Below, one piece after another: positions 11,875 through 28,708 of a stretch of 39,244 bases of DNA. A program made the position numbers and the translations under genes. The notes under the pieces were generated by a model, which searched no databases, was not told where the DNA came from, and was given only the letters and a program-made list of their open reading frames with translations. This DNA is from Pseudomonadota bacterium (GTDB lineage: Bacteria; Bdellovibrionota_B; Oligoflexia; Oligoflexales; RGVZ01): contig JBEGVZ010000074.1 of NCBI GenBank assembly GCA_041178085.1, forward strand, positions 1 to 39,244, read 5' to 3'. Every line of letters starts with the position of its first letter. Position 1 is the first letter of the stretch.

Positions 11875-14800
11875 TGGTGGTTTTCCTGGCAATGGTTGCT
11901 TACCGGTTGAACATGAGCAAATGGTCGCGGCTGCTCCAATGCGCGGGCACGGCAATGGCTTGCGCGATGGCGACCCTTGCTTCTGAAGTCGCAGCCGCGG
12001 CAACCTGGGAAGTGGCTCCAGGCATCATCAGCGAGACCGCTGCACGCAATTTGCGCGAGCGTCATCCGCGGATTGAAAATCCAGGCGACTTGATGCGATT
12101 GCTGCAAGACATGGCCCGCAAGGCGGAGCTACTCGACCTCAATGCTTCGTTCGTGCCGGATGGTGATGGTGGGAAGTTCCTTATCACCGGACGTGGTGCG
12201 ATGACGGTCGCCGAAATTGACATCCATAGTTCCCTGAGGGACTTGCGTTCCCAGTTGAGGGCGATGGCCCAGAACGTAGAGGGTCAGGTTGATACGCCGG
12301 CTCTTCGGGAGAGAGTCCGTTCCGATTTCACTGCGTACTTGCACCGCCGCGGGTTTTTCGGGGCCAAGGTTTCAGTCAAACCCGAGGTCGATCAGGACTA
12401 TCTCGTCTACAAGGTCAAAGTGTCAGAGGGCGAGCCTTGCGTGATCGAGAAGATTGATATCGGTATCAAACTGCCCTTCGGTGCAAGCACTGGCATTGTG
12501 ACGGGAGATATCTGTGATGAGGAGGCTGTCCGCCAGAGCGTCGAGCGCCTTCTCGATGCCATGCGTGACCGCGGCTACAATCAGGCAAGGATTGAGCTTG
12601 CCGGGATGACCAGGCATCCAGAGCGAAACACGGCCACAGTCCATGTCGGCGGGGTTCTTGGCAAACGCATTCGTTACCAGGTGAATGACAAGTCGCGGGC
12701 GTACCGGATTGGTGACCTGTTCGGAGCCAATGAGCTGAGCGGCATCGACCCAACGATTGTCGGGCCGGACGCAATGGCTGCTGAATTGGTCCGTCGATAC
12801 AAGTCCAAGGGATTTAACGATGTCGCCGTGACTGGACCCAAGCAGGATCGCCGCGCGGATGACGAAATTGTTTATGTGTTCGATGTCGATCCGGGTCCTC
12901 AATACAGCTTGCGCAGTGTCAATTTCGAGGGCAGCCAGCGTTTCCCCAATTCCGAATTGCTTTCGCTGATGAATTTGCAGGGTTTCTGGCAGAACACGTC
13001 AGTTCCCCTTGATCCTGAAGTGATCCGCGCCGGTGTTGACGCGATCAAAGTGAAATACCAGTCGAGCGGTTTCTGGGATGTGGCGGTGCGTGATCGTCCC
13101 CCAGCCAAGGACAAGGATGCGGGCATCGCTCAAGTGACCATTGCGATCAACGAGGGCCAGCAAAGGATGCTGGGCTCGGTTTCGGTTCGTGGCAACAAGT
13201 TTTTCCCAGCTGACATCCTGCTGCAATTGCCGGAGGGCGAAGGCAAGCTGGAAATCGGTGCCCCGTTGGATCGCTCTGTGCTCTATAAGTTGCAGCAGGC
13301 CATCCGCACCCGCTATTTCGAGGCCGGGTACCTCTATACAGACGTCAAAGTTGACCTTGCGTACCGGCAGGAGAAGAAGCTGATCCAGGTCGATGTCGTG
13401 GTCGAGGTGTTTGAGGGCAGCCGTGTGAAGATCGGGAACATCTCCGTGACCGGTCTGGCTCGCACGAAGCCCAAGGTCGTCTTGCGCGAACTTCGCTTCG
13501 AGCCGGGCCAGTGGTACGACCCGGAAAAGATCACCGAGTCCCGGCGGGCCCTTGTCGCCCTCGGTCTTTTCCGGGCTGTCCAGATCCTGCCGATGGATCG
13601 TAACGCCCTTTCCGACGAGGAACCCGAACTGGATATCCTGGTCGATGTCCGTGAAGGGAAGGCGGGCAGTGTTTCCTTCGGGCCTGGGTGGAGTCTTGCC
13701 GACGGATACCGGTTCAACACCGAGGCCACCTACAACAACATTGGCGGGCTTGCCCGGCAGGTTTCACTGCGCGCGGGTTTCTCGCAGGAAGTAAGGCAAG
13801 TTGCGATCGGTAACAAGACCCTGGTTGGCAGGAATATCGGTGGGGGTTACGTGGAACCCTATGTGCTTGATCTTCCTTTCGACCTTACTGTGTCTGCAAC
13901 CAACCAGGCGCGTGCGACCGAGACCGCCTGGGAACTCAGTCGCGCCGGCGAAGTGGCCCTGAGCAAGAAGCTCAGATGGTTGGGGCCGACTTCAGTGGCT
14001 TCGTTGTATTACGGGCAAAAAGTCACGCGGCAGGAGTCTGATTACGCCAGGCGTTCTGCTTTGCTTTCCGATGATGTGCGTGTTGGCGTTGTCGGTTTGC
14101 GGGCAAACATCGACCGCCGAAACGATACGACTTGGCCCACACGTGGATGGACCATGAGTCCGGAAATCAGCATGGCCCGGTTTGCGATGGGCGGTGACCT
14201 GCGCTTCTTGCGCACCCAACTGGACTATGCCAGGTATTTTGGCCTGCGCCCCCGTTTCGTGCTTGCGGTTGGCGCAAGTGTATCCGCTTACCAGGATGTT
14301 GAACGCAAGGGAGAAGATCGTTCGCTGGACTTGTTGCCCCCTTCAGAGAGGCTGTACGTCGGTGGTGCTGACTCGATACGGGGTTATCGCGAACGGTCTC
14401 TTGGCCCCCTGGTACGCAGCCCTGTGATCGATGATGACGGGATCTGGAATTGCGGTTGGCAAACAAGTCGTTCAGGGGGTTCCCGGCGACTTGTGTTCAA
14501 ACTGGAGGGACGTTATCGCCTTACTGACAGCCTTGCTGCAACGGCCTTCGTCGACAATGGCAATGTGTTTTTCAGCAAGGAAGAAATGGACAGGTTCGGC
14601 AAGGCTTTTTCTGATCCAGTCGAAGTATCCGGTGTGGGTGACGAATGTGCCCCCGGGCAAGCGATCCGCAGCGTCGAAGACAATAATGGATACAGCCTGG
14701 ATGACTTGAAGAAGGAGCCCGGGCTGCTCTGGACCAGGCACTATTCAAGCTATGGCACCGCCATAAACTTTCTGACGGCGATTGGCTCCGTGAATCTTGC

Positions 14801-14936
14801 CTACGGACTGCCCATGCGGGAGCCAACGTCTTCTGCATGTAGCAGTGGTGAGGGAGATTGTTATCCGAGGGGCAAGCAGGAAGGTTACTGGCTCACTCGC
14901 GGTGAGTTTCATTTGAATGTCGGGGCGCGATTTTAA
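11871..14936 (+). CDS. Omp85 family outer membrane protein (BamA/TamA-like) with POTRA domains
   Basis: Repeated POTRA motifs (YLHRRGFF, RDRGYN, YFEAGY, ISVTGLARTKPKVVLREL, LGLFRAV), barrel motif RLYVGGADSIRGY, AFVDNGNVF, C-terminal FHLNVGARF. ATGA overlap with tamB; alternative start ATG near 11913. Confidence 0.9.
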   Translation: MMVVFLAMVAYRLNMSKWSRLLQCAGTAMACAMATLASEVAAAATWEVAPGIISETAARNLRERHPRIENPGDLMRLLQDMARKAELLDLNASFVPDGDGGKFLITGRGAMTVAEIDIHSSLRDLRSQLRAMAQNVEGQVDTPALRERVRSDFTAYLHRRGFFGAKVSVKPEVDQDYLVYKVKVSEGEPCVIEKIDIGIKLPFGASTGIVTGDICDEEAVRQSVERLLDAMRDRGYNQARIELAGMTRHPERNTATVHVGGVLGKRIRYQVNDKSRAYRIGDLFGANELSGIDPTIVGPDAMAAELVRRYKSKGFNDVAVTGPKQDRRADDEIVYVFDVDPGPQYSLRSVNFEGSQRFPNSELLSLMNLQGFWQNTSVPLDPEVIRAGVDAIKVKYQSSGFWDVAVRDRPPAKDKDAGIAQVTIAINEGQQRMLGSVSVRGNKFFPADILLQLPEGEGKLEIGAPLDRSVLYKLQQAIRTRYFEAGYLYTDVKVDLAYRQEKKLIQVDVVVEVFEGSRVKIGNISVTGLARTKPKVVLRELRFEPGQWYDPEKITESRRALVALGLFRAVQILPMDRNALSDEEPELDILVDVREGKAGSVSFGPGWSLADGYRFNTEATYNNIGGLARQVSLRAGFSQEVRQVAIGNKTLVGRNIGGGYVEPYVLDLPFDLTVSATNQARATETAWELSRAGEVALSKKLRWLGPTSVASLYYGQKVTRQESDYARRSALLSDDVRVGVVGLRANIDRRNDTTWPTRGWTMSPEISMARFAMGGDLRFLRTQLDYARYFGLRPRFVLAVGASVSAYQDVERKGEDRSLDLLPPSERLYVGGADSIRGYRERSLGPLVRSPVIDDDGIWNCGWQTSRSGGSRRLVFKLEGRYRLTDSLAATAFVDNGNVFFSKEEMDRFGKAFSDPVEVSGVGDECAPGQAIRSVEDNNGYSLDDLKKEPGLLWTRHYSSYGTAINFLTAIGSVNLAYGLPMREPTSSACSSGEGDCYPRGKQEGYWLTRGEFHLNVGARF

Positions 14937-14955: not shown

Positions 14956-17112
14956 ATGCACGATGATCAGCATCAGCAAGAGCTGGCAACCCATGACATG
15001 GAAATCAGCAACTATTTGGCAGGGGCTTCCCCCGATGAACGCATTGCGGCGCTGCGCGAACTTGGCGCCCGCGGCATGGTAATGCCACCGGCGCTGGTTT
15101 CCGCACTGTTTTCGCTGGATATTCCGGTGGCAGAAAAGCTTGCGTTACTTGAGGTGGCGTCTCTTGCGGGTGACGAGGGGCTGGAGTCCTTCATTTTTGA
15201 CAACCTGGTCCATTGGACCCAGGAGCTTGCCGCTCGCGCATTGCGCTTGTGGGCGCAGAATCCCGTTCGCGGGAATCGTTGGCAGGATTTGTCGAGGCTT
15301 GCCCAATTGCCTGGAATTCCGCAGCGTGTCCTCTACACCATTCTTGACATTGCGCCGGCTTGCGACGGGCGGCGTGAACCAGTTATCTCTCTGGTCAAGG
15401 CATGTGTTGAGCCAGCCGTGCGCGAACCGCAAGGGTACTTGTCCCCGGCATTCAACGCTTTGATGCTGGTCCGGATGTACGAATTCAAGATATTTGACGA
15501 GCGTGTTGTCGCGCTGGCGGCATCCATCTGCAAGCGTGCTGCAGCCGAACTGGTACCTGAAGACAAGTCGGCCATGGCGGCATGGCTTTACCTCTGGCGA
15601 TTTTCACCGGACACGTTTGCCTCGCTGGCATCAACAATCCCTGGCGATTCTCCGCAGCGGATGGTCGGGAGCCTTTCCGCGGACTTCAGCTTGACTTCTC
15701 AAGTGCAGGCGGCCTTGCCGGCTCGCAAAAAGCGTTCGCCTGCACGCGTCCATGTCGCAGACGGTGGCGCAGCGGCTTGCCTTTCCAAGCTTTGCAGGCA
15801 GGCGTCTGGCGCCCCTGCGGATGGTGGTGTCACGACAGGGTCCGTTTGGCACCTGCTTCTGCGCGTGGCGGATCCATCAACGCCGGAGCGTGACCTGCGG
15901 GAACATGCAGCGGCGTTGCGTCCGATGGGTGGCATTTACCGGATGGCCTACCTGCGAGCGCTTGGTCACCGTCGCGGCAGTGACGAGGCCGTTTTGAAGT
16001 TGCTGGACTTCGTCCGATCGAACCATTCACCCGAACTGCGTGAAGTGGCGCGGTCCTTGTCGGCGATCGGAACGCCCCGCGCCGTGCAGGAGTTGATCGC
16101 GATGATCTCGCGTGCGAATGCGGATGTCGATTTGCAGCTCGACATCGCGTCGCTGCTGCGTCGTCATAACCTGCAGGCGCATCGAGCTGAGCTCATGGCG
16201 GCGGCAAACCACCTTGCCGCACGGGTGCGTGAAGGGCGCGGGACCGGGAGCGGTGCCGAGGCCACCTTTGAGGTGTGGGAAGCCCTGCTCGAATTGGTTG
16301 GTAATGAGGTCCCTGCCAAAATTGATTCAGCCTCGTCACCGGTTTCGACCAGCACGTCCAATACCGTATCCGGATTTGAGGTGGGCGAGATGGACGCCGG
16401 GTTGTCCAGGATCATTCCCAACTACTCAGAGTTGTCTGCCGAGGTCAAAAGGGCGTTACGCACGGCATGGTATTTTCACCGCCAGATTGAGGCGCATCCT
16501 GCGACTTCGGCGATCGACCTCAGCCCGGTGATTGACATGCAGTACAAGGCCCTGGAACTTCTGTTCCGGGAGTTTTTTGAGGACGCTTCCAGCCGGCTTA
16601 TCCAGACCGGTGTCATCCAGCGCAAACTCGACCTGATCGGGTATTCACGTCCCGTTCCTGCAAAGATGGATGAGTTTGAAAGCTTCGTGGCCGGTATGCC
16701 GGTGATTGACTCCATCCCGTTTTTCAGCAAGTTCAAGCTCAGGAAGATGCTGCTCGCCCTTTGCCAGTTTAAACCCGGTAAGCGTTTCACCCTGGATGGT
16801 CTCAAGGCATTTGGGTTGTTCTTCTTTGTCTTCGGGCGTAGCGAATGCCGGTTCGGACTGGCTGGAATCGTCCCGGTTGTGCCCGGGACGGTTGCAAACG
16901 ACCGCAAGTTGGCGGAATTTTGCCGTCTGCTCCACGTTTTCCAGGACTTCCGCAACCGGGCAGCCCACGAGGGGTTCCATCCGGAGGCTGCCGCCGACAT
17001 CCAGGGGATCTGGCGGAATTCCGCGGAAATCATTCAGACGGCATTCGCGATTCGCAAGGCTTTCGGCCGTTCGGGCCCCGAACCGGGCCTTGTCCGGGGC
17101 CGCGCCAGCTGA
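14956..17112 (+). CDS. HEAT-repeat protein with putative C-terminal HEPN-like domain
   Basis: HEAT/PBS-like helices (RMAYLRALG..EAVLKLLDFV; REVARSLSAIGTPRAVQELIAMI). C-terminal DLSP..QYKALE and FRNRAAHE. Start moved to ATG 14956 (or GTG 14953) after a G-rich RBS. Confidence 0.65.
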   Translation: MHDDQHQQELATHDMEISNYLAGASPDERIAALRELGARGMVMPPALVSALFSLDIPVAEKLALLEVASLAGDEGLESFIFDNLVHWTQELAARALRLWAQNPVRGNRWQDLSRLAQLPGIPQRVLYTILDIAPACDGRREPVISLVKACVEPAVREPQGYLSPAFNALMLVRMYEFKIFDERVVALAASICKRAAAELVPEDKSAMAAWLYLWRFSPDTFASLASTIPGDSPQRMVGSLSADFSLTSQVQAALPARKKRSPARVHVADGGAAACLSKLCRQASGAPADGGVTTGSVWHLLLRVADPSTPERDLREHAAALRPMGGIYRMAYLRALGHRRGSDEAVLKLLDFVRSNHSPELREVARSLSAIGTPRAVQELIAMISRANADVDLQLDIASLLRRHNLQAHRAELMAAANHLAARVREGRGTGSGAEATFEVWEALLELVGNEVPAKIDSASSPVSTSTSNTVSGFEVGEMDAGLSRIIPNYSELSAEVKRALRTAWYFHRQIEAHPATSAIDLSPVIDMQYKALELLFREFFEDASSRLIQTGVIQRKLDLIGYSRPVPAKMDEFESFVAGMPVIDSIPFFSKFKLRKMLLALCQFKPGKRFTLDGLKAFGLFFFVFGRSECRFGLAGIVPVVPGTVANDRKLAEFCRLLHVFQDFRNRAAHEGFHPEAAADIQGIWRNSAEIIQTAFAIRKAFGRSGPEPGLVRGRAS

Positions 17113-17113
17113 T

Positions 17114-17176
17114 AACCTCGCCCCTCTGGTTCCAGAAAAAACGAATTTCAGGAACTTTTTCAGAGGGTTGGGGGTT
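17114..17176 (+). promoter_or_regulatory. Long imperfect hairpin filling the intergenic region before fabG (terminator and/or RBS-sequestering stem)
   Basis: Nested pairs AACCTC/GGGGTT, CCCTCTG/CAGAGGG, GTTCC/GGAAC, GAAA/TTTC. The inner stem is followed by TTTTT (17156-17160). Confidence 0.45.
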
Positions 17177-17179
17177 TTT

Positions 17180-17959
17180 ATGGCTGCCATTTCGGCGTCT
17201 TCGAGTTCCACCGGTGGCAACACAGGCACAACCGGTCAAAAAGTTGCACTTGTAACAGGCGCTTCGCGCGGTATCGGTGCTGCTTGTGCCATCGCTCTCG
17301 GGCATGCAGGTTTCAAAGTCGCGGTGCATTACCGCGGCCAGGAAGACAAGGCGATGGCGGTCTGTGCTCAGATTCCAGGCGCCAAGGCATTTCGTGCGGA
17401 CCTTTCGGATCCTGCGGCTTGCCAGGAGTTGATCAAAACTGTGACCGCGGAAATGGGTGGTTTGCATGTGCTCGTGAACAACGCGGGTGTAGCCATCGAC
17501 CAGGTCCTGCCTCTTGCCAAACCTGATGACTTCGACACGCTCATCGCAACCAACCTGAAGCCGGTGTTCATGCTGTCCAAGTTTGCCGCGCGGCAGATGA
17601 TTCGACAAAAATGGGGGCGCATCATCAACTTGGCGTCCGTAGTCGGTTTCACCGGCAATCCGGGTCAAAGCATGTACGCTGCCACCAAGGCCGGCATCAC
17701 CGGATTCACCAAGTCGATCGCAGCGGAACTGGCTCCCTACGGGATCATGGCCAACTGTGTGGCCCCGGGTTTCATCCAGACCGACATGACGGCTGCTTTG
17801 CCTGAAGGCGTCAAGGAAGCGATGTTGTCCAGGATTCCCTTGAAACGTTTTGGGCAGGTTGAGGACATTGCCGGAGCGGTAGAATTCCTCGCCTCCGAAA
17901 AGTCTTCGTACATCACCGGGTCCACGATCCATGTGAATGGCGGAATGTTCACCAACTGA
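17180..17959 (+). CDS. fabG: 3-oxoacyl-ACP reductase
   Basis: TGASRGIG, VNNAG, GRIINLASVVG, YAATK, NCVAPGFIQTDMT, IHVNGGM. True start ATG 17180; the track's upstream extension overlaps the previous gene. Confidence 0.9.
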   Translation: MAAISASSSSTGGNTGTTGQKVALVTGASRGIGAACAIALGHAGFKVAVHYRGQEDKAMAVCAQIPGAKAFRADLSDPAACQELIKTVTAEMGGLHVLVNNAGVAIDQVLPLAKPDDFDTLIATNLKPVFMLSKFAARQMIRQKWGRIINLASVVGFTGNPGQSMYAATKAGITGFTKSIAAELAPYGIMANCVAPGFIQTDMTAALPEGVKEAMLSRIPLKRFGQVEDIAGAVEFLASEKSSYITGSTIHVNGGMFTN

Positions 17960-17969
17960 CGGGATTTTC

Positions 17970-19016
17970 ATGTCTCCCCAGAACGCGAAAACACCAGCGA
18001 ACCAGCGTATTTTCATCACAGCATTCGGGCACTTTGTTCCTGCGAATGTCATCGATAACGAATTTTTTGGCACTCTGGATATCGGCTCTGATGGGCAGTG
18101 GATTGTCGACCGGGTCGGAATCCGTGAGCGGCGTAGCATCCTGACCACCGCTGAATTGCGCGCGTTACGTCGTCGTGAGATCACGCGAGATGACTTGTGG
18201 GCAGCCGGCAGGATCATGACGTTCGGCAAGATGGCGGCGAGCGCCTGGGAACACGGCATGTCTCGTGCGGGCCGCCGCACTGCAGACCTCCACGCGGATG
18301 CGGTCATTGGTGGCACGTCTGTGCCAGACAGCGACATTCCATCCCACGCCTGTTACGCGGCGCGTGATTCAGGGCTGTCGACAGGGTTTGCTTACGACAC
18401 TAACTCTGCTTGCAGCACGTTTGTCGTACAGCTGCATACCATGCGTGGCCTGTTCGCTTCGGGTAGTGCGCGCACAGGAGCGATATTTGGGGCAGAGCGT
18501 TATACAACCCGCGTGGACTACGCCGACCGTAAAAGCTGCATCCTGTTCGGAGACAGTTCCTACGCGGCATTTATCGAGGCCTCGCCAAACGGCAAATGCC
18601 TGGAAGTCATCGATACTTTTGTTGAATCTTCTCCGGAAGGTGCGGACACGATCCGCATGCTTGATGGTAAACCGTTTGAGCAAGACGGGCAGGCTGTCCA
18701 GAAGTTTGCCATCCTGAAAACGGTTGCGGCGGCCCAGGCCATGCTGGAGCGCAACAAGTTGTCGGTCTCTGAAATCGACTGGTTTGTCGGGCATCAAGCA
18801 AACCTGCGAATGCTTTCGTCGGCGGCGCAGCGACTTGGTCTTGCTCCTGAACAACATCTATTCAACGTGGACACGCATGGAAATCAGGGTGGGGCGGGAG
18901 CGCCTGTATCGCTCAGCCAGAACTGGGATCGCCTGCGACCGGGGCAACATGTGGTCATGTCCGTGGTTGGTTCTGGCCTGACATGGGGCTCTGCCCTGTT
19001 CAAGGTCCATGGTTGA
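17970..19016 (+). CDS. fabH: 3-oxoacyl-ACP synthase III family
   Basis: WIVDRVGIRERR, Cys-His-Asn triad (NSACST, VGHQAN, HGN), ILFGD, GSGLTWG. Start ATG 17970. Confidence 0.88.
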   Translation: MSPQNAKTPANQRIFITAFGHFVPANVIDNEFFGTLDIGSDGQWIVDRVGIRERRSILTTAELRALRRREITRDDLWAAGRIMTFGKMAASAWEHGMSRAGRRTADLHADAVIGGTSVPDSDIPSHACYAARDSGLSTGFAYDTNSACSTFVVQLHTMRGLFASGSARTGAIFGAERYTTRVDYADRKSCILFGDSSYAAFIEASPNGKCLEVIDTFVESSPEGADTIRMLDGKPFEQDGQAVQKFAILKTVAAAQAMLERNKLSVSEIDWFVGHQANLRMLSSAAQRLGLAPEQHLFNVDTHGNQGGAGAPVSLSQNWDRLRPGQHVVMSVVGSGLTWGSALFKVHG

Positions 19017-19022
19017 TTGCCC

Positions 19023-20171
19023 ATGAACGGTGATGCCGCCAGCGGAAAGCCCTGGATCCTGATGACGGGTGCCAGTGGTCTTCTTGGTCGTTACCTGCGC
19101 TACGCCCTGAATTCCAAATACCGTTTCTGGTGTGTGGATCGCGCTCCCGTTCCTGACATGTACGTTGGTGATGTTGGAGATGTCGTGGACCTCGGCAGTC
19201 TGTCGACATTGACAGAGGCGTGGGAGCGTCGTCGCGAGATCACCAGCAATTTACACGCCGTTGTGCATCTGGCTGCTTATTACGATTTTTCAAACGTCCC
19301 GAATCCCGCTTATGTGCGTGTCAACCAGGGTCTTGAACGACTTCTCATGCTGATATCCAAAGATGCGCCTGGAAACTGTGTTTTCGTTCATGCGGGCAGC
19401 GTGATTTCTCTTGCACCGTCCATGCCCGGCCAGCGCCTGAACGAATCAAGTCCCCGTGCGGCAACCTGGGAATACCCGCGCAGCAAGCAGCAGGCGGAGC
19501 GTTTGCTTGACCAGAGTCCATTGAGGCAACCGATCATCCAACTGATCCTGGCAGGCATATACACTGACTGGTGCGAACTGGTTCCCTTATTTCAATGGAT
19601 CGAGTTGTGCGGGCGTCCGGGGATTGAGAGGAATTTTTACGCTGGGCCACCCACCCGCGGTCATTCCTACGTTCACATCGAAGATGTCGTGCGCGCCTTT
19701 GAGATTGTCCTGGACAGGTACGGAAATGGTGGAGATCTGATCAAACAGGCTGAGTTTGAGCTGCTCGAGAAGCGGCTCAAAAAAAGCGTCGAGGTCAGCA
19801 TGGAGGGCGGTGTCCGGGAAAAGTTTCTGATCGGTCAGCCGCAACCCGTGACCTACCGGGAAATTCATGCGCGGGCCTGTTCTGCCCTCTTCGGGCGCGC
19901 ACTCCCGCTGATTCAGCTGCCCCCCGAGTGGGCAAAGGTCGGAGTCGCGATCCTGGCAATGGTGGCTAAGGCCCGGAAAAAGCCTCAGTTTATTCGTAGC
20001 TGGATGGTGGACCGGGCAGGTGATCATTATGCGCTGGATTTAACCCGCGCGCGGACGCGCCTTGGCTGGGTACCCAAGAAGTCGCTGCAGACCGATCTGG
20101 ATGGTATGCTGGGTCGCGCAATGCGCGAACGCGACCGGTGGCTCAAGGCTAATCTGGCACGACCGGGATGA
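19023..20171 (+). CDS. NAD-dependent epimerase/dehydratase (extended SDR)
   Basis: TGASGLLG, VVHLAA, YPRSK (YxxxK), YVHIEDV, ARTRLGWVP. Confidence 0.85.
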   Translation: MNGDAASGKPWILMTGASGLLGRYLRYALNSKYRFWCVDRAPVPDMYVGDVGDVVDLGSLSTLTEAWERRREITSNLHAVVHLAAYYDFSNVPNPAYVRVNQGLERLLMLISKDAPGNCVFVHAGSVISLAPSMPGQRLNESSPRAATWEYPRSKQQAERLLDQSPLRQPIIQLILAGIYTDWCELVPLFQWIELCGRPGIERNFYAGPPTRGHSYVHIEDVVRAFEIVLDRYGNGGDLIKQAEFELLEKRLKKSVEVSMEGGVREKFLIGQPQPVTYREIHARACSALFGRALPLIQLPPEWAKVGVAILAMVAKARKKPQFIRSWMVDRAGDHYALDLTRARTRLGWVPKKSLQTDLDGMLGRAMRERDRWLKANLARPG

Positions 20172-20173
20172 TG

Positions 20174-22177
20174 TCAGATGGGCGGAACTAAGACGATTTC
20201 CCCGGCCACATTTTTCCAAACAGTGTAACCCAGATTTAAAAGCGCGCGCAGTTCATCAAGCAAGACCCGGGGACTGGCTACCAGCAGTCCAGTTGTCGGG
20301 TCAATGATACCCTCTCCCGTCGGACCACTGCCCAATGTTGATCCGGGTGCCACCTTCACTGGTATTTTGATTTCTCGAAGGATTCCTGCAAGCGGTCCGT
20401 TGACTAAGTCAATGAAGGCCGCTTGTTCGGCGGGCGTAAATGTATCCCATGGCTGAGTGGTGCGGAGGATGGCCTTGAGCAAACCCGTCGTTTTTGGATC
20501 CAGGTTCAGCAAGTTGACCCATTCTGAATTGCTCGATCCGATATAAAAGAAACCGCCGTTTTTCGCTGCAGAGATTTCCTGCAGCCGGTCCCACATTTCA
20601 CCGGCGAGCGTGGCAATTGTCTTCGGATCGTAGCGCAAGGTGCCATCTGGTTTGGTGGCATAGGCTGTCATCGCTTTGATGACGTCTTTCAGCGAACTGG
20701 ACTTTGCCAGGTCTTGGGCGTACGTCGCGTAATGTGACACGTCTGGAATCCTGTTTGTAAGGACTGGGAGTCCTCCCTCTGCTGCATTAGACATCCCTTG
20801 AATTACGCCCGGATTATCGAATGCTTTTCCGGCTGGCAATGCGTCTTTCAGGTTTATCTGGGTCATTTTTTCGCCGTTGATGGTAGTTGTCGGTGCCGTG
20901 GGATTCCGGATGGCGGCCCAATAAGTGAGCAAGTTTCCTGCGAGCGCGACAAGGTTTGATCCGTTCTGCTTTTCCATGGCGGCGATTTGTTCCGCGATCG
21001 ACTGATTTGGGTTCAGTGCGATATAAAGCGTCTTCCCGGCTTCAACGGCTGTTCCGATGGCCGCCATGCCAGTTCCGATAGCGGTTGCACCGGCAACAAT
21101 TGCGGCGGGGGGAGCCGCAGGCAACATCAAGATGGCGCCCACCGTCACACCGACCGCGACACCACCAGTGACTAGACAAGCGACTCCATAGTTGTACCAT
21201 GAGTCTGCTCCGCCCAAGGTGCATGTGCTGACACTCTGGCCGACGTTTGAAACCATCTCTCCAATCGACGCCAATGCGTTAGCGGGCAGTTTTATGAACC
21301 CGTCGGCGAAATGATAGACGCCCTGTCCAGCCGTGCTTATTAGGCCGTAGTTGAAGGCTTCTGGCTCTGCACTCAAACCTGTTGCCGAGGCAGGTCTTTC
21401 ACATTTCTTATAGGAGCCGGACAGAATCCCACTGGGTGCCCCGTCGCAGTAATAGTTGCAGCCGGTAGTGTATATCCAGCCAGTCCTCATGCAATTTGCC
21501 TGCGCCTCAAGGCACGCTGCCATTGACGGGAACTGGTTTTTGTATCCGCAGGCCTGGTTGGCTTCGCTAACTGGGTCCGGCGGCATGGATTGAACGGCCG
21601 TCGCCAAGCCCAATGCATCTTTGGGTGCGTTTCCTTTCTTTGACGATTTCGGATTACCTGCAAGGTCGGCTGGCAAATTTTCCCCGCGATCTGCGAAAAC
21701 CAATTCCCCGGATTCGCCGGTACGCAGAAAACCAAGAAAGGGTATGCATTGCGGATCCCTTTGGAAGCTTGGCGGGACGCTGGACAGTGCCTCAGCACGA
21801 CATGTTCCGGAGCCGGAGGAAACCACCCTGCTGTCCGGAATCTCCAGAACTTCACCAGCATTGGTAACGGCATAAAGGGTGCACATCACAGGATTCGTCG
21901 CTAGATCTGCCAACGGGCCGAAAACACAGCCCACGACCCGGGTACCTTTGACTTGGGATGCGAGCTTTGGAACGTTCACTTTTCGGAACTTGATGTCATC
22001 CGAATCGGTGACAATATTTTCTCCCGGTGGTCGGGGGGCATTCCCAGTCGATTCGAGCGGTTTGTTCGAACTCCCTGCAACGATCACTTTCCGAAAGCCA
22101 CAGGACGACGCGATGCTCGCGATCAAGAATGCCAACGTGATGTGAGTTAATGTCGCATTGCGAGTCTCGTAACGCAT
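20174..22177 (-). CDS. Lipoprotein with Cys-rich module, hydrophobic hairpin and toxin-like C-terminal domain
   Basis: Start ATG 22177 (MRYETRNATLTHITLAFLIASIASSC) with GGGAGA RBS; lipobox ASSC; six-Cys segment; Gly/Ala-rich hydrophobic stretch. 667 aa. Confidence 0.7.
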   Translation of the reverse strand: MRYETRNATLTHITLAFLIASIASSCGFRKVIVAGSSNKPLESTGNAPRPPGENIVTDSDDIKFRKVNVPKLASQVKGTRVVGCVFGPLADLATNPVMCTLYAVTNAGEVLEIPDSRVVSSGSGTCRAEALSSVPPSFQRDPQCIPFLGFLRTGESGELVFADRGENLPADLAGNPKSSKKGNAPKDALGLATAVQSMPPDPVSEANQACGYKNQFPSMAACLEAQANCMRTGWIYTTGCNYYCDGAPSGILSGSYKKCERPASATGLSAEPEAFNYGLISTAGQGVYHFADGFIKLPANALASIGEMVSNVGQSVSTCTLGGADSWYNYGVACLVTGGVAVGVTVGAILMLPAAPPAAIVAGATAIGTGMAAIGTAVEAGKTLYIALNPNQSIAEQIAAMEKQNGSNLVALAGNLLTYWAAIRNPTAPTTTINGEKMTQINLKDALPAGKAFDNPGVIQGMSNAAEGGLPVLTNRIPDVSHYATYAQDLAKSSSLKDVIKAMTAYATKPDGTLRYDPKTIATLAGEMWDRLQEISAAKNGGFFYIGSSNSEWVNLLNLDPKTTGLLKAILRTTQPWDTFTPAEQAAFIDLVNGPLAGILREIKIPVKVAPGSTLGSGPTGEGIIDPTTGLLVASPRVLLDELRALLNLGYTVWKNVAGEIVLVPPI

Positions 22178-22209
22178 GATCGAATCTCCCGGGTAAGCGT
22201 CCGAGGAGA

Positions 22210-22236
22210 AGTTCGGTCGAGGGGGCAGGAACTTTA
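22210..22236 (-). promoter_or_regulatory. Sigma-28 (FliA)-type promoter
   Basis: TAAAGTTC-N11-ACCGAACT, 32 nt upstream of ATG 22177. Near-perfect -35 and spacing, CCGA core in -10. Confidence 0.6.
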
Positions 22237-22398
22237 TCCATCTTGGAAGGGGTTGTTGTTTGTTTCGAAATTTCGAGGGGTTATGTCTCGATGATTTCTT
22301 CACCATAGCGTTGGTGTTTTTATGGTCAAAAACAACCCGGAGGCGCGCCGCCATGAACCTCGATGTTGTCGGTCCCTAAAGACAATCATCGAAGCTTA

Positions 22399-22426
22399 AA
22401 TCGGGATGAGCTTTGGCGTCCCGATT
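22399..22426 (-). terminator. Hairpin at the gcdH stop codon, probable terminator
   Basis: AATCGGGA (22399-22406) / TCCCGATT (22419-22426) perfect inverted repeat. A second bulged hairpin lies at 22360-22392. The U-tract is short. Confidence 0.45.
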
Positions 22427-23594
22427 AGCGGAACGCCGCAATTCCCGTGATGTTCTCGCCGATCACCAGACGGTGGATATCTTCCGTGCCCTCGTATGTA
22501 TTGACCGTCTCGAGGTTCATCATGTGCCGGATCACCGGGTACTCGTCGATGATGCCGTTGCCACCCAGCATGTCGCGTGCGTCGCGGGCGACGTCGAGCG
22601 CCATGCGGCAGTTGTTCATCTTGCCGAGCGACACTTGGTGAGGGTGGAGCGTGCCTTTTTCCTTGATGCGTCCCATTTGGAGGACGAGGAGCTGCGCTTT
22701 CGTGATCTCTTGAACCATCTTCACCAGCTTTGCCTGCGCCAATTGATTTCCGGCAAGAGGCTTGCCGTCAAAAATTGTGCGGCTTTTGGCGTAGTTGAGG
22801 GCTGTGTGGTAGCAGGCGTTGGCGGCGCCGATCACGCCCCAGGCAATGCCGTAACGGGCCTGGGTAAGGCAGCTGAGTGGTCCGCGCAGGCTTTCGACAC
22901 CTGGCAGAATGTTTTCTTCTGGAACGACACAGTCTTGGAAATGCAGTTCGGAAGTTGTGCTGACGCGCAGCGAGAACTTGCCCTTCATCGTGGTGGTTGT
23001 AAATCCAGGTGTGCCTTTTTCGACGATGAAGCCGCGCACTTTTCCGTCCAGCTTTGCCCACACGACCGCGATGTCAGCGATGCAGCCGTTGGTGATCCAC
23101 ATCTTGTTGCCGTTGAGCTTGTAGCCACCGGGCACTTTTTCTGCCTTGGTATTCATCGAGCCCGGGTTGGATCCCGCGTCTGGTTCGGTCAGGCCGAAGC
23201 AACCGATAAGATGGCCCGTCGCCAGTTTCGGCAGGTATTTATCTTTCTGCTTCTCTGAACCGTAGGTGTAGATCGGGTACATGACCAGCGATCCCTGGAC
23301 GGAGCAGAAGGAGCGGATTCCTGAATCGCCGCGCTCGAGTTCCTGCATGACGAGGCCGTAGGCAACCTGGCCAAGGCCTGGGCAGCCGTAACCTTTGATG
23401 GTTGAACCCAGCAGGCCGAGCTCGCCAAACATGGGAATGAGTTCCATGGGGAACTTTTCGTCCCGGTTAGCCTTCATCATGAGGGGTTCTACACGCTCGT
23501 CCACGAAGTTGCGGACCGATTGGCGGACGAGGAGTTCCTCTTCCGTGAGAAGGCTGTCGATGTTCATGTAGTTCAGGGATTCGTAGGCTGCCAT
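22425..23594 (-). CDS. gcdH: Glutaryl-CoA dehydrogenase-type acyl-CoA dehydrogenase
   Basis: ELERGDSGIRSFCSVQGSLVMYPIY, GCFGLTEPDAGSNP, KMWITN, ARYGIAWG, GGNGI..EYPVIRHMMNLETVNTYEGT..IH (GCDH-type signatures). Start ATG 23594 with AGGAG RBS. Confidence 0.85.
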   Translation of the reverse strand: MAAYESLNYMNIDSLLTEEELLVRQSVRNFVDERVEPLMMKANRDEKFPMELIPMFGELGLLGSTIKGYGCPGLGQVAYGLVMQELERGDSGIRSFCSVQGSLVMYPIYTYGSEKQKDKYLPKLATGHLIGCFGLTEPDAGSNPGSMNTKAEKVPGGYKLNGNKMWITNGCIADIAVVWAKLDGKVRGFIVEKGTPGFTTTTMKGKFSLRVSTTSELHFQDCVVPEENILPGVESLRGPLSCLTQARYGIAWGVIGAANACYHTALNYAKSRTIFDGKPLAGNQLAQAKLVKMVQEITKAQLLVLQMGRIKEKGTLHPHQVSLGKMNNCRMALDVARDARDMLGGNGIIDEYPVIRHMMNLETVNTYEGTEDIHRLVIGENITGIAAFR

Positions 23595-23691
23595 GAGCGG
23601 GCTCCTTTTCGGGCCATTTTTGCCCTCTTTTTGTTGCTCGTCTGGGACCGCCCGGAGTAGTGTGCAGGGCGCATCAGAGCGAGGATTCCGC

Positions 23692-25953
23692 ATGTTTAAT
23701 CGAGCCGAGGTCATTGATCAAAACTTTTCTCGCTTCGTCCGCGAGGGAAAACTGCCGGCTGAAAGGTCTTCAACCGGGCTTGCACAATCGGGCTTGCGCC
23801 CGGCGGATCTGATGGACCTGTTCGAAAGCCAGATGATCAGCCGGCACCTGGACCTGATTGCCCGGGTCCTGAAAAACGAGAACCTTTGCTACTACACCAT
23901 TGGCAGTTCCGGGCACGAAGGCAACGCTGCTCTGGGGAAGGTTTTCCGGCTGACGGACATGGCTTTCCTGCACTACCGGAGCGGCGGTTTCATGATCCAG
24001 CGGGCCAAGCAAGTGCCCGGAACCACTCCTGTTTATGACACGATGCTGTCGTTTTTTGCGTCCACCGAGGAACCCATTGCCGGCGGGCGCCACAAGGTGT
24101 TCGGCAGCCTGCCCCTTCTTGTTCCGCCCCAGACCAGTACGATTGCCTCACATTTGCCCAAGGCGGTGGGGGCTGCCCTTTCGATCCATCGCGCGCACGC
24201 GATGGGAATCGAATCTGTCATGCCGGCCGACGCCGTGGTGGATTGCACCTTTGGTGACGCTTCCGCCAACCACTCAACCGCCATAGGGGCAATCAACATG
24301 GCCTCGTGGGTGGGCTACCAGAACATCCCGCTTCCCCTTGTTTTTACCTGTGAAGACAATGGCATAGGTATTTCTGTTGCGACACCGGACCAATGGGTGG
24401 AACGCAACTTCTCGGGCCGTCCAGCAATCAAATACTACGCGGCCGATGGCCTTAGCCTGCTAGATACCTACAAAGTGGGAGAGGAAGCGGTCCGCTACGC
24501 CCGGGAACGGCGCAAGCCCGTATTCCTTCATGTCAAGACTGTACGCTTGATGGGTCACGCCGGATCCGACATGGAGAACTCCTACCGTTCCTTTCCGCAG
24601 ATCGAGGAAGTCGAGTTCCAGGATCCTCTGCTCCATTCGGCCAGGCTGGTGCTCGAGAATGGACTCGCCTCTCCGGAAGAGCTGGTCAACATGTACGAGC
24701 AAGTGCGGGAGCGGGTGCGCCACGTTGCAGCGGCAGCCATGGAGCGTCCACAGCTCTCCGACCCGGCGGAAGTCCGCTCGACCATCACGGCTTGCGTACA
24801 CAAGCGCAAGGCTCCGCCAATTCCATCCGAAGCTGACCGCCAAGCGGCATTCGGTGGGTCTGACTGGGCCAAGACGAAAATCCCACTGCACATGGCCAAG
24901 CTGATCAACCTCGGTCTGCATGACATCTTGTTGCGTTACAAAAACACAGTGATTTTTGGCGAGGATGTGGCGCAAAAGGGCGGCGTTTACAACGTCACGG
25001 ATGGCCTGTTTAAAAAATTCGGTGCGAAGCGTGTATTCAACTCCCTGCTCGATGAGCAGTCGATCCTGGGCACGGGGATTGGCATGGCCCACAACGGATT
25101 TGTCCCGATCCCGGAAATCCAATTTCTGGCCTACTTTCACAACGCCGAAGATCAGATCCGCGGCGAAGCCGCAACGTTGCCGTTTTTCTCGCAGGGCCAG
25201 TTCACCAATCCAATGGTGCTGCGCATCGCTGGACTTGCTTACCAGAAGGGCTTCGGCGGGCACTTCCACAACGATAACTCGCTGGCAGTGCTGCGCGACA
25301 TTCCGGGCATCATCATCGCCGTGCCTTCCACGGGCGCTGACGCCGTCAAAATGATGCGTAGTTGTGTGCGCGAAGCATACGAGAACGGGCGGGTTGTGGT
25401 GTTCATCGAGCCGATTGCTCTGTACATGACGCGCGACCTGAACGTAGAAGGCGATAAAGTGTGGTGTGCTGAATACCCCGCTCCGGAAGACGAAATTCCG
25501 GTGGGAGAGTTTGGCGTCCATCGCTCCGGCGCGGCCGGCGAGGTGGCCGATTTAACGATCTTGACCTACGGCAACGGCTACTATTACTCGCGCCAGGCGA
25601 GTGAGGTGCTGGTCAAAGAGCACGGCAAGAAGGTCAAGGTGATTGACTTGCGATGGATTGCGCCCATCGACATGGACAAGGTGGCGAAGGAAATCGGTTC
25701 TTCGCGGCGGGTCCTTGTCGTCGAAGAGTGTCGCAAGACAGGCTCACTGAGTGAGTATCTGGTCAGCGCTCTGGTCGAACGCATGGACCCATTGCCCCGG
25801 ATCAAGGTGGTCGCAGCTGACGATTGCTTCATTCCACTCGGGCGCGCGGCCGCGGCTGGCCTGCCTAAAAAAGAGGAAATCCTTGCCGGTGCCCTGGAGC
25901 TTCTGCGCGATCACTCGAAGGCTCCCGCACGCAAGCAAGTGGAGACAGTATGA
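23692..25953 (+). CDS. Fused E1 alpha/beta ThDP-dependent 2-oxoacid dehydrogenase
   Basis: YTIGSSGHEG, HYRSG, FGDAS...EDN ThDP motif, RLMGHAGSD, FGEDVA.KGGVY, EIQF, GGHFHN, VIDLRW. Start ATG 23692 (MFNRAE) with GAGGA RBS. No lipoyl domain. Confidence 0.9.
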   Translation: MFNRAEVIDQNFSRFVREGKLPAERSSTGLAQSGLRPADLMDLFESQMISRHLDLIARVLKNENLCYYTIGSSGHEGNAALGKVFRLTDMAFLHYRSGGFMIQRAKQVPGTTPVYDTMLSFFASTEEPIAGGRHKVFGSLPLLVPPQTSTIASHLPKAVGAALSIHRAHAMGIESVMPADAVVDCTFGDASANHSTAIGAINMASWVGYQNIPLPLVFTCEDNGIGISVATPDQWVERNFSGRPAIKYYAADGLSLLDTYKVGEEAVRYARERRKPVFLHVKTVRLMGHAGSDMENSYRSFPQIEEVEFQDPLLHSARLVLENGLASPEELVNMYEQVRERVRHVAAAAMERPQLSDPAEVRSTITACVHKRKAPPIPSEADRQAAFGGSDWAKTKIPLHMAKLINLGLHDILLRYKNTVIFGEDVAQKGGVYNVTDGLFKKFGAKRVFNSLLDEQSILGTGIGMAHNGFVPIPEIQFLAYFHNAEDQIRGEAATLPFFSQGQFTNPMVLRIAGLAYQKGFGGHFHNDNSLAVLRDIPGIIIAVPSTGADAVKMMRSCVREAYENGRVVVFIEPIALYMTRDLNVEGDKVWCAEYPAPEDEIPVGEFGVHRSGAAGEVADLTILTYGNGYYYSRQASEVLVKEHGKKVKVIDLRWIAPIDMDKVAKEIGSSRRVLVVEECRKTGSLSEYLVSALVERMDPLPRIKVVAADDCFIPLGRAAAAGLPKKEEILAGALELLRDHSKAPARKQVETV

Positions 25954-26987
25954 CCAAAAAGAACCGCATTGTTGTCATCTGTCCAGGGCGTGGTTCTTAC
26001 ACGAGTGAGACCCTTGGCTACTTGAAGCAGTGTCGCGATAATCCTGTCGTTGCTGATTTTCTTGCTGATATTGACCAGCGTCGCGCCCAACTTGGCGAGC
26101 CGACCATCTCTGAACTGGACAACGCAACGAACTTCAGTCCAAGCCGCCACACGCGTGGCGAAAACGCTTCGACTTTGATCTATGCGTGCTCGTTTGCGGA
26201 CTTTGCTTCGATAGACCTTGAGAAAAACGAGATCGTTGCCATCACCGGTAATTCGATGGGCTGGTATCTGGCCCTTGGATTTGCCGGGAGCCTTGACTGG
26301 GCTGGCGCATTTGAATTGATCAACACCATGGGATCGATGATGAAGGACAAGATCATCGGTGGTCAGTTGATTTATCCGGTGGTTGATGGAGATTGGCGTT
26401 TTTCACCTGAATTGCAACAGACTGTATCCCGCGCGATTGACGATGCACGTGCCGCAGGCGGCCAGGTCCATCCTTCAATTCATCTTGGCGGCTATGCGGT
26501 CATTGGTGGCGACAGTGTGGGTTTGAATTACTTGATGAAAAACCTGCCAAAGCTGGAGCATTACCCCCTTCAACTCATCAACCACGCAGCATTTCACACG
26601 CCGCTGTTGCGTGAAACTTCCGAACGTGCTTTTGCGTCGATTCCCGGATCGATCTTCCACCGGCCACGCGTCCCGATGATCGATGGTCGCGGTCAGATCT
26701 GGCAGCCGTGGAGCACGGATGTTAATGACTTGTATGATTACACGCTTGGTCACCAGGTTCACGAAATCTACGACTTCACACGCGCAGTCACGGTTGCCTT
26801 GAAAGAATTCGCCCCTGATCAGCTGTACCTTCTTGGTCCAGGCAATAGCCTTGGGGGTGCGATCGGTCAGGTGCTTGTGGCCAACCAGTGGCAAGGCATA
26901 AAGAGCAAAGCCGACTTCTCTGCGGTTCAGAAAAGCCGGCCTTTTTTGGTTTCGATGGGCCTTCGGAATTCTTCCAGGACGCCCTGA
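25950..26987 (+). CDS. FabD/acyltransferase-fold protein with atypical active site
   Basis: CPGRGSY, TGNSMG (Ser nucleophile elbow), AAFHTPLL, LLGPG. ATGA overlap with the E1 gene. Confidence 0.8.
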   Translation: MTKKNRIVVICPGRGSYTSETLGYLKQCRDNPVVADFLADIDQRRAQLGEPTISELDNATNFSPSRHTRGENASTLIYACSFADFASIDLEKNEIVAITGNSMGWYLALGFAGSLDWAGAFELINTMGSMMKDKIIGGQLIYPVVDGDWRFSPELQQTVSRAIDDARAAGGQVHPSIHLGGYAVIGGDSVGLNYLMKNLPKLEHYPLQLINHAAFHTPLLRETSERAFASIPGSIFHRPRVPMIDGRGQIWQPWSTDVNDLYDYTLGHQVHEIYDFTRAVTVALKEFAPDQLYLLGPGNSLGGAIGQVLVANQWQGIKSKADFSAVQKSRPFLVSMGLRNSSRTP

Positions 26988-26997
26988 TGCCGTGTTC

Positions 26998-28554
26998 TCA
27001 GTTCGTGCTTTTCAGCCTGAGGAAAATGCCCTTCACTTCGGCGTCATGTGGCCCGGACTCGTTGTTCCATCGCTTTTCCACAAAGTTGCTGCTTAGTGAG
27101 CGGGTATTGCTGTCGGCGTCACTCAAGAATTGATCGCGCGAAACCAGGGAAACGCCAGCCCTCATGCTGTTGGTAACAGCTTTTGTGGCCACTCGCATGA
27201 TATAGGTTGCAAAAGATCCAGCCGGGATCTCGATGTCTCGTACGTCCTGTCCGTCAAGGTTTGTGATCCTGACCCCTACGCTACCCATGGTAGATTTGCC
27301 AAGTCTGCCTGAAAAGACCTTGTCACCGTGATTGCGCACAGTGAAGTGAATCAGGTGTTCGACGTTTGCCTTGATTGTTTTGAGTGCCGCATTTTCAATC
27401 TCATGGAAGGCGATGGAAACGTTTTGCTGTGGCGGCACGTAACGGAACTTGATGTCGTCAACAAGCATCTTTACTTGCTCCGCCTGAATTTCCGGGTCAG
27501 CAAAGTACCTGTGACAGTCGATGTAAAACCGGGTCATGATCTCGAAGTAATTGCCAGCGTTGGCGGTCGGGTTGACGGCCGGAACACGGTTGCTGTGCCC
27601 ACGTTGATGCTGAGGGGTATCGTTCAGCAAGACGCGGATCCAGTCGTCCTCAGCCTTGTCGTGACGAAGGAAAATCTGGTGGTAGAAATGCCAGTTGTCT
27701 GATTCCTTGACCGGACTACCCTTGCCAATCATTGCCGGGTCGAAGTGGTAGGTCCCGAAGATGAAGTTGACGTGGTTTGGATAGTACATCGGTTTTGCAG
27801 ATGCATTGGCTTTGCGAAATCCTTTCGGGAATTTCACCCAGAATTCGATTTGGTTGGCACGTCGTCCCTCAGGCAACAAGTAACCATCCTTGCCATACGC
27901 CAGGAGGCCGGGGCGCTTGCGGGTGACCCAGAATCCTGGCAGACCGCTCCCCTCCGTTTTCGGGCCAGTCGGGGTTTTAACAATTTTTGTGGTGTATTCT
28001 ACCGCGAGGGCTGTTCCGCCATTGCGGCCCTGCCGAGGTGCGAGGGACAGTTTGTCGACGCCGCTATCTCCCTTGCCGCTTACCACTGTCTGCGTGATTC
28101 CGGCAGGCTGTTTTGCGAGCCAACCATCGTCGCGCAATTCAGCGTCTTCGAAGTCGAGCAACGTGAAGTCCTGACTTTCGCCAGGCTGCGCGGGCAAAGA
28201 TGATGTTAAAATTGGAGAAGCAGAGTTTAGAAACACCGGGCCCTTGATGGAAGCTATAATGCCATCGTCTGAAACTTGGCGTCCATTTTCATCCAACTCA
28301 TTAACGTCCGGATCGCCCTCAAATTCGCTGTCACCAGAAGAGTTAGTGTTACCACTTTGGTTTGAGGACCCATTTCTTTCCGCATTGTCATTCCCGCCCC
28401 CGGATTTTCTACTGCGAGCGGTATCCATTATTTGACGCTCCTGGATGGAGCAGTTGACCAAGATAAATGCAGTAAAGGATGCAGCAAGCAATGGAGCGCT
28501 TACCAAACCAGTGATTGCCAAGCCGCATATGGGGCGGTTGCGGAACTTTTGCAT
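26998..28554 (-). CDS. Probable lipoprotein with carbohydrate-binding-like beta-sandwich and C-terminal Ig-like domain
   Basis: Start ATG 28554 with GGAGG RBS; hydrophobic signal ending LVNC; S/G/N-rich linker; LLDFED..ALAVEY..IEFWVK..VDDIKF jelly-roll-like pattern; HFTVRNHG..IPAG Ig-like tail. Confidence 0.6.
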   Translation of the reverse strand: MQKFRNRPICGLAITGLVSAPLLAASFTAFILVNCSIQERQIMDTARSRKSGGGNDNAERNGSSNQSGNTNSSGDSEFEGDPDVNELDENGRQVSDDGIIASIKGPVFLNSASPILTSSLPAQPGESQDFTLLDFEDAELRDDGWLAKQPAGITQTVVSGKGDSGVDKLSLAPRQGRNGGTALAVEYTTKIVKTPTGPKTEGSGLPGFWVTRKRPGLLAYGKDGYLLPEGRRANQIEFWVKFPKGFRKANASAKPMYYPNHVNFIFGTYHFDPAMIGKGSPVKESDNWHFYHQIFLRHDKAEDDWIRVLLNDTPQHQRGHSNRVPAVNPTANAGNYFEIMTRFYIDCHRYFADPEIQAEQVKMLVDDIKFRYVPPQQNVSIAFHEIENAALKTIKANVEHLIHFTVRNHGDKVFSGRLGKSTMGSVGVRITNLDGQDVRDIEIPAGSFATYIMRVATKAVTNSMRAGVSLVSRDQFLSDADSNTRSLSSNFVEKRWNNESGPHDAEVKGIFLRLKSTN

Positions 28555-28574
28555 TTGAACCTCCAAGTTCTTAC

Positions 28575-28602
28575 GTTTCGGACTTCGATCGTGGTTATCT
28601 GA
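28575..28602 (-). promoter_or_regulatory. Possible sigma-28-type promoter (weak)
   Basis: TCAGATAA-N12-TCCGAAAC, 20 nt upstream of ATG 28554. Confidence 0.35.
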
Positions 28603-28673
28603 GGAAATGCTTTCTTCCATGATAACCAGCCGGATAGATTGGGAAAATTGGCTCTTGAATCCCGCGATTTGCA

Positions 28674-28708
28674 CCCATTCAGATCACATTTTTAATGATC
28701 TGAACGGG
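28674..28708 (-). terminator. Hairpin downstream of the 1384-aa gene
   Basis: Minus-strand stem CCCGUUCAGAUCA/UGAUCUGAAUGGG (13 bp, one G-U), 9-nt loop, no U-tract. Confidence 0.45.

Follow-up and report, generated by a model that had tools for sequence, protein, structure and literature searches.

The window analysed here is a stretch of 39,244 nucleotides (contig JBEGVZ010000074.1, assembly GCA_041178085.1) from a Pseudomonadota bacterium placed by GTDB in the order Oligoflexales of Bdellovibrionota_B. It contains three adjoining genes: a glutaryl-CoA dehydrogenase gene (gcdH; 22425 to 23594, minus strand, 389 aa), a divergent gene for a fused alpha/beta-type, thiamine diphosphate-dependent 2-oxoacid dehydrogenase E1 without a cognate E2 (23692 to 25953, plus strand, 753 aa), and a gene for a Ser-His acyltransferase of predicted FabD fold and non-malonyl type (25950 to 26987, plus strand, 345 aa). 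It is quite possible, if short of probable, that this trio is a catabolic module for the conversion of 2-oxoadipate via glutaryl-CoA to crotonyl-CoA, working on borrowed lipoyl arms, with the transferase off-loading the glutaryl group. More tentatively, we propose that the FabD-fold protein supplies the acyl-transfer activity of a 2-oxoadipate dehydrogenase in bacteria, unloading glutaryl from lipoyl arms borrowed by an orphan alpha/beta-type E1; this would be the first E2-core chemistry outside the CAT fold, and residue 112 of E1 would mark the coupling.

Gene content and conserved residues

The gcdH product carries the Pfam acyl-CoA dehydrogenase domains Acyl-CoA_dh_N, Acyl-CoA_dh_M and Acyl-CoA_dh_1, and its ten best PDB chains are all GCDHs (E values from 2.5e-137 for the human enzyme, 1sir, to 2.9e-120), the next class being ACX4 at 3.6e-83. 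Arg94, Ser98 and Glu368 (the glutamate of a YEGT motif) align with Arg94, Ser98 and Glu370 of the human GCDH chain; in mature human numbering we take Glu370 to be catalytic, and Arg94 and Ser98 to bind the substrate carboxylate. By these matches the acyl-CoA dehydrogenase of the window is a true glutaryl-CoA dehydrogenase, in agreement with the original prediction made from this DNA. Its start codon was placed at the ATG at 23594, which has AGGAG 8 nt upstream; the longest open reading frame (ORF) would begin at 23714, and the alignment with human GCDH begins at residue 12 of the 389-aa form. The E1 start was placed at the ATG at 23692, where the N-terminus MFNRAEVIDQNF matches the family consensus MxNRAExVxxNF. 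With both start codons chosen to fit the homologues, the divergent intergenic region measures 97 bp (23595 to 23691), the length first reported. A promoter and terminator scan of 22200 to 27300 found nothing in this gap exceeding shuffled sequences, and the sigma-70 consensus was not matched there, an absence that says little. Among 20 sequencing runs listed, there was no RNA run that would bear on expression of the genes.

The E1 combines E1_dh (residues 47-355), Transket_pyr (400-572) and Transketolase_C (619-705) Pfam domains in a single chain, and its PDB matches are to the beta (1e-41 to 1e-31) and alpha (1e-15) E1 subunits of pyruvate and branched-chain 2-oxoacid dehydrogenases (PDH and BCKDH), which identifies it, at the level of sequence, as alpha/beta type and not E1o type. 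The thiamine diphosphate/Mg motif is kept (GDAS...EDNG, aligned to GEGA...RNNG of human BCKDH alpha), GHAGSD aligns with HHSTSD of human BCKDH alpha, and FHNDN aligns with LHSDS of PDB chain 1w85_B. Both lipoyl-acylation histidines, which we take to be the equivalents of human BCKDH His291-alpha and G. stearothermophilus His128-beta in reductive lipoamide acylation, are invariant across 31 family members, and the family carries no extra redox domain in Pfam.

No E2 gene adjoins the E1 in the window, in the 80 transferase loci described below or in 21 further related loci. The original prediction's statement that the window holds no lipoyl, E2 or E3 domain stands for the 22 ORFs scanned (a subset of at least 150 aa, judged likely genes), and all genome-wide matches to PF00198, PF00364 and PF02852 lie on contigs other than that of the window. 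The description "E2-less" thus applies to the locus but not to the cell, whose genome encodes three full E2s with lipoyl domains (on contig C59, with a split PDH-type E1; on C65, with an E1o; and on C37), three E3-like proteins and GcvH. Since four E1s (on C59, C65, C107 and C74) face three E2s, the E1 of the window is an orphan. A separate 338-aa protein (C96:16765-17781, i.e. L094:4765-5781) matches the E2 catalytic domain (PF00198, 86.5 bits) in two separate segments and has neither a lipoyl nor an E3-binding domain.

The stop codon of E1 (TGA, 25951 to 25953) overlaps the start codon of the transferase (ATG, 25950 to 25952) in an ATGA (25950 to 25953, plus strand), so that an acyltransferase-fold gene is indeed coupled to E1 in the position that E2 usually occupies. 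The 345-aa product matches no Pfam family at E<=0.1, Acyl_transf_1 included; its NCBIfam matches, mdcH (1.9e-7) and fabD (8.9e-6), are both far below their cut-offs (25.4 bits against 260.9 for fabD), and by sequence it matches a FabD in the PDB at 1.1e-5. The AlphaFold2 model (pLDDT 93.9, pTM 0.92) has the two-subdomain FabD fold with a Ser102-His216 dyad, and its top Foldseek matches in the PDB are all FabD/MCAT structures (3k89: E=3.8e-18, TM score 0.71/0.77; 15-21% identity), with an Atlas structure match at TM 0.77. Three motifs are invariant in 40 sequences, G100-N-S102-M-G-W, A214-F-H216 (within AFHTP) and P12-G-R14-G, as is Met127, which aligns with the malonyl-binding Arg117 of two FabDs; it is this replacement of the malonate-binding arginine that leads us to call the enzyme non-malonyl. 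Pfam scans detected none of the hallmarks of an E2 in the protein (lipoyl domain, E1/E3-binding domain, CAT-like catalytic domain).

By sequence comparison against 1.84 billion representatives the transferase family is compact and well set apart (579 clusters at E<=0.001, 133 at the stricter E<=1e-30), with identities of 48-88% across phyla. Its 90% clusters hold more than 6,600 proteins, mostly without a name or automatically named acyl carrier protein (ACP) S-malonyltransferase. One metagenomic protein (P0236, 595 aa) is an in-frame fusion fragment in which the C-terminal half of a divergent E1 (29% identical to E1 residues 508-718) is joined by a Ser/Pro/Ala-rich linker to a transferase (37% identical), with a tail that resembles unspliced eukaryote-type sequence; this supports a joint function of E1 and transferase, as a single record of unknown origin. 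Two other apparent fusions were rejected: P0123 (1082 aa) is a frameshift read-through in which residues 577-745 are out-of-frame, Arg/Pro/Gly-rich text, and P0195, in which E1 residue ~565 is joined to transferase residue ~127, looks like a deletion or misassembly.

Conservation of the trio and E1s without the transferase

Loci were found via the transferase, taking the best 80 of 579 confirmed relatives, and GcdH was counted at >=45% identity; 68 of these loci have enough flanking sequence to be informative. In 78 of the 80, E1 immediately precedes the transferase on the same strand (match spacing -33 to +135 nt); in one more it stands 747 nt away, and the last is cut by a contig end, so that E1 is upstream in 79/79 loci with upstream DNA; this arrangement is not due to chance. 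A GcdH gene is present in 61 loci (61/68 of those with enough flank). In 13 loci, from Bdellovibrionota, it is upstream and divergent, as in the window; 36 loci from Alteromonadales, Shewanella and other Pseudomonadota have it upstream in the orientation of E1, a LysR gene being divergent; and in the 12 from Fidelibacterota it is downstream, frequently behind a homocitrate-synthase-like gene. Carriers of the trio occur in Shewanella, Colwellia and Oligoflexus, with Shewanella aquimarina, Thalassotalea piscium and Oligoflexus tunisiensis as culturable examples. The 19 remaining loci comprise 12 that are short of flank on the relevant side and seven that are not. Loss of the linkage to gcdH had been named in advance as a result that would count against the idea; instead it holds in three phyla and in three gene orders, which argues for selection on the trio. 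GcdH is the sole partner retained across phyla in the 80 loci, and the linked copy is the only GcdH-family protein in four of five other genomes tested.

The 80 loci share no conserved CoA-transferase gene, nor a conserved ACP gene next to the E1-transferase pair; ACP and fatty-acid genes never adjoin the transferase, and no lipoyl domain adjoins the pair at any locus. A link to the ketoacyl synthase III (KAS III) and short-chain dehydrogenase/reductase (SDR) genes of the window, along the lines of a BioZ-like route to pimelate, was considered and rejected as not conserved at other loci. HglS-like and aldehyde dehydrogenase genes near the Alteromonadaceae trio were likewise discarded as a link to lysine, being part of an arginine succinyltransferase operon (AstA, class-III aminotransferase). 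In seven Fidelibacterota loci (L015, L018, L021, L029, L039, L048 and L075) the homocitrate-synthase-like gene (HMGL-like plus HCS_D2 domains) stands between the transferase and gcdH.

In a phylogenetic tree the E1-linked GcdHs from Bdellovibrionota, that of the window included, group as one clade (16 rows, SH-aLRT 98). The order's unlinked copies fall elsewhere, one of them being a second copy in the window genome on contig C43; the module has therefore brought or kept its own GcdH in this phylum. Linked and unlinked copies intermix in Pseudomonadota. The C43 copy belongs to the native unlinked clade of the order, and is placed two genes after a lipoyl synthase gene, from which a lipid A acyltransferase gene and a 172-aa ORF separate it.

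The E1 also occurs without the transferase. Among 121 genomes sampled from the phylum, eight have an E1 and no transferase (three of these E1s being cut by contig ends), and none was found near the five unpaired phylum E1s that were fetched, or near a second copy in one of these genomes (G099), the neighbours being unrelated. In the order of Shewanella (151 genomes), E1 was found in 21 and the transferase in six, and 0/15 unpaired E1 loci have a transferase within ~5 kb. Fourteen unpaired gammaproteobacterial E1s form a clade of their own (SH-aLRT 100). All 35 paired E1s belong to another group, for which support is weak (85), and the fourteen lie outside it; the unpaired E1s (L125-L139) are 50-56% identical to that of the window. 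Their 15 loci, for which genes were called by Pfam on a subset and by BLAST on the remainder, have a divergent PALP gene resembling cystathionine beta-synthase in 13 cases, a Cys/Met lyase gene dependent on pyridoxal phosphate (cystathionine-gamma-lyase-like) in seven and a LysE exporter gene in four, none of which was found in the 80 paired loci. This context points to 2-oxobutyrate, not 2-oxoadipate, as the probable substrate, and makes the unpaired clade a candidate for an orphan E1 that acts on 2-oxobutyrate, with a link to transsulfuration or the breakdown of methionine.

Judged from the tree, the transferase is confined to the GcdH-linked branch of E1s, and inside that branch it has been lost twice, in a sister lineage of a related genus (three genomes) and in one Alteromonadales genome where gcdH lies directly upstream of E1. 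A search for family-wide E1 positions that are lost in unpaired E1s, intended as a map of the interface, returned a single universal site. Residue 112 is Thr in 34/35 paired E1s (Thr in the window; His in the one other) and Asp (16) or Asn (4) in 20/20 unpaired E1s, both recent losses included, so that 3/3 independent contrasts run in the same direction. It lies ~20 positions before a GGRHKV loop, the counterpart in the alignment of the BCKDH E1 alpha substrate loop, and may mark either a contact with the transferase or a difference in substrate. The separate clade and context of most unpaired E1s, and the residue-112 signature, are new in this analysis.

Around the trio, a 726-aa ORF (20174 to 22354, minus strand) follows gcdH on its strand after 70 bp and a 558-aa ORF (26998 to 28674, minus strand) flanks the module on the other side; both lack Pfam and NCBIfam matches. 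Further away are a plus-strand row of genes for a FabG-like SDR, a divergent KAS III with an N-terminal extension and an NAD epimerase/reductase-like protein (16706 to 20171), and a tandem of TamB-like (1427 aa) and Omp85/POTRA (1021 aa) genes, i.e. a translocation-and-assembly-module pair (7591 to 14936).

Proposed mechanism and alternatives

Gene content, conserved residues and linkage are observed; from them we infer every catalytic step of the following route. E1 would decarboxylate 2-oxoadipate and reductively glutarylate a lipoyl arm borrowed from an ordinary E2 of the cell; the transferase would move the glutaryl group from the dihydrolipoyl arm to Ser102 and then to CoA; E3 would re-oxidise the borrowed arm; and GcdH would oxidise and decarboxylate glutaryl-CoA to crotonyl-CoA. 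A private transferase would be needed because the E2 cores to which alpha/beta-type E1s dock are presumably built for acetyl or branched acyl groups. Ordinary E2 cores accept propionyl, the acyl group derived from 2-oxobutyrate, and the contrast between paired, GcdH-linked E1s and unpaired, transsulfuration-linked E1s fits a need of the charged five-carbon acyl group, but not of propionyl, for its own off-loader. At least one lipoylated-type E2 is present in 6/6 trio genomes examined, including a 2.1-Mb Fidelibacterota genome with a single E3-LipB-E1-E2-LipA operon.

Several observations weigh against this route. The sole pointer to 2-oxoadipate as the putative substrate is the neighbouring gene, i.e. 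the GcdH linkage, and no clear route to 2-oxoadipate was found in the window genome, where two saccharopine-dehydrogenase-like ORFs carry no curated name and the AlaDh_PNT_N matches are an alanine dehydrogenase and a 587-aa protein. The window genome holds the second GcdH noted above (C43:97332-98549, i.e. L092:9332-10549; 56% identical to that of the window), and in the 121 phylum genomes GcdH is found in 99, E1 in 30 and the transferase in 23, so that the majority of relatives produce or consume glutaryl-CoA with no such module. Seven of the 68 informative loci have no GcdH nearby, and in two Pseudomonadales loci an aldehyde dehydrogenase gene replaces it; in these metagenome-assembled genomes (L065 and L071) a LysR gene is divergent from an aldehyde dehydrogenase-E1-transferase row, the aldehyde dehydrogenase gene standing where gcdH does in Alteromonadales. 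The residue-112 pattern comprises three contrasts (sign test p 0.25), a number that cannot reach significance, and may stem from a difference in substrate and not from the transferase. Finally, the two losses inside the paired clade show the transferase to be dispensable. One of these lineages still has gcdH beside E1, and the replacement of the E2 catalytic domain by the transferase, as put forward in the original prediction, is to that extent not obligatory; in the proposed route the transferase would raise flux or free the borrowed arms, and would not be indispensable.

The same two losses suit an alternative that we consider unlikely and nevertheless the strongest competitor, namely that productive transfer to CoA is the work of the borrowed E2 core, with the FabD-fold protein acting as a repair hydrolase and freeing lipoyl arms of stalled glutaryl as glutarate. 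FabD-fold hydrolases occur in trans-acyltransferase (trans-AT) polyketide synthases. ABHD11 is a Ser-His hydrolase with exactly such a role, as set out in PMC12643935. However, hydrolysis would waste the thioester and require a CoA-transferase ahead of GcdH, of which the 80 loci conserve none, and the tight translational coupling and the 48-88% identity across phyla would better suit a stoichiometric pathway enzyme.

Somewhat less likely again is that the pair uses another substrate or feeds biosynthesis, either with the transferase loading an ACP or with E1 taking a different 2-oxoacid and the gcdH linkage reflecting shared regulation only. The nearest folds are indeed CoA-to-ACP and ACP-to-ACP transferases, VinK among them, the sister E1 clade points to 2-oxobutyrate, a homocitrate-synthase-like gene lies within Fidelibacterota operons, and KAS III, SDR and reductase-like genes are found 4-6 kb away in the window. 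These last (KAS III, SDR and epimerase) do not, however, recur in the 80 loci at E<=1e-10, and the absence of a conserved ACP gene beside the pair, together with GcdH as the only partner kept across phyla, argues against a biosynthetic role.

A lipoate-independent pair, in which acyl-thiamine diphosphate is oxidised by some other acceptor and the acyl group passes directly to the transferase or to CoA (a direct transfer that the original prediction had offered as an option), would agree with the absence of a lipoyl domain beside the pair in all 80 loci, but is very improbable, since E1 retains both lipoamide-acylation histidines (which makes borrowing of lipoyl arms far more likely than lipoate-free chemistry), the family lacks an extra redox domain, all six trio genomes tested encode a lipoylated E2 and, from the structures of E1s, the thiamine site is buried beyond the reach of a protein serine.

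The enzyme for the step from 2-oxoadipate to glutaryl-CoA has been assigned in animals; in the literature searched, supplements excluded, we found neither a bacterial description of the E1-transferase pair nor a bacterial enzyme with this gene set assigned to that step. All 2-oxoacid dehydrogenases described to our knowledge transfer to CoA via a CAT-fold E2 core. If the proposed route of borrowed arms and a FabD-fold off-loader is correct, an enzyme of that fold in the E2-core role would widen the known architecture of 2-oxoacid dehydrogenase complexes, and a function would be explained for several thousand proteins now automatically named ACP S-malonyltransferase. The paired and unpaired E1 clades provide a natural experiment on the reasons for which a charged acyl group may require an off-loader of its own.

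Comparison with known systems

In Pseudomonas the gcdR / gcdH-gcdG locus has a LysR regulator gene divergent from gcdH, which is followed by a glutarate CoA-transferase gene supplying glutaryl-CoA. The Alteromonadales loci resemble this arrangement, with LysR divergent from gcdH and with E1 and the transferase holding the place of the CoA-transferase gene. The transferase resembles FabD and the trans-ATs VinK, DisD and PksC in its fold (TM 0.66-0.72 by query), nucleophile elbow and catalytic His; unlike FabD, it has GNSMGW in place of GHSxG, Met at the position of Arg117 and 15-21% identity, and, on a reading of the motifs, appears to have Arg at the presumed Gln11 position.

The animal 2-oxoadipate dehydrogenase complex (DHTKD1 as E1a, DLST as E2o, DLD as E3) resembles the proposed system in its reaction, 2-oxoadipate to glutaryl-CoA ahead of GCDH, and in having an E1 without an E2 of its own that borrows lipoyl arms, as we propose for the E1 of the window. 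DHTKD1 is a homodimeric E1o-type enzyme, whereas the E1 of the window is of the fused alpha/beta, PDH/BCKDH type, and the animal system is not known to have a private acyltransferase.

Actinobacterial OdhA has its own transferase domain and no lipoyl domain, and lipoyl-lysine is supplied in trans by E2p, according to PMC10415282. The two-in-one OdhA/KGD enzymes described there are like the proposed system in combining an E1 with its own acyltransferase and lipoyl arms in trans, but differ in that a canonical E2o catalytic domain is fused to an E1o and the substrate is 2-oxoglutarate; the window instead encodes a separate FabD-fold Ser-His protein and an alpha/beta-type E1. The question of an off-loader also bears on the recently found poisoning of the animal 2-oxoglutarate complex by glutaryl-lipoyl adducts. 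In human cells CoA and NAD+ do not clear such adducts from E2o within 30 min, and their removal requires the serine hydrolase ABHD11, as PMC12643935 reports. This mitochondrial glutaryl-lipoyl thioesterase is, like the putative transferase, a Ser-His enzyme acting on S-glutaryl-lipoyl arms; it differs in its alpha/beta-hydrolase fold, in releasing glutarate and in having no known genetic tie to an E1. Taken as precedents, OdhA (PMC10415282) and ABHD11 (PMC12643935) make the proposed design plausible.

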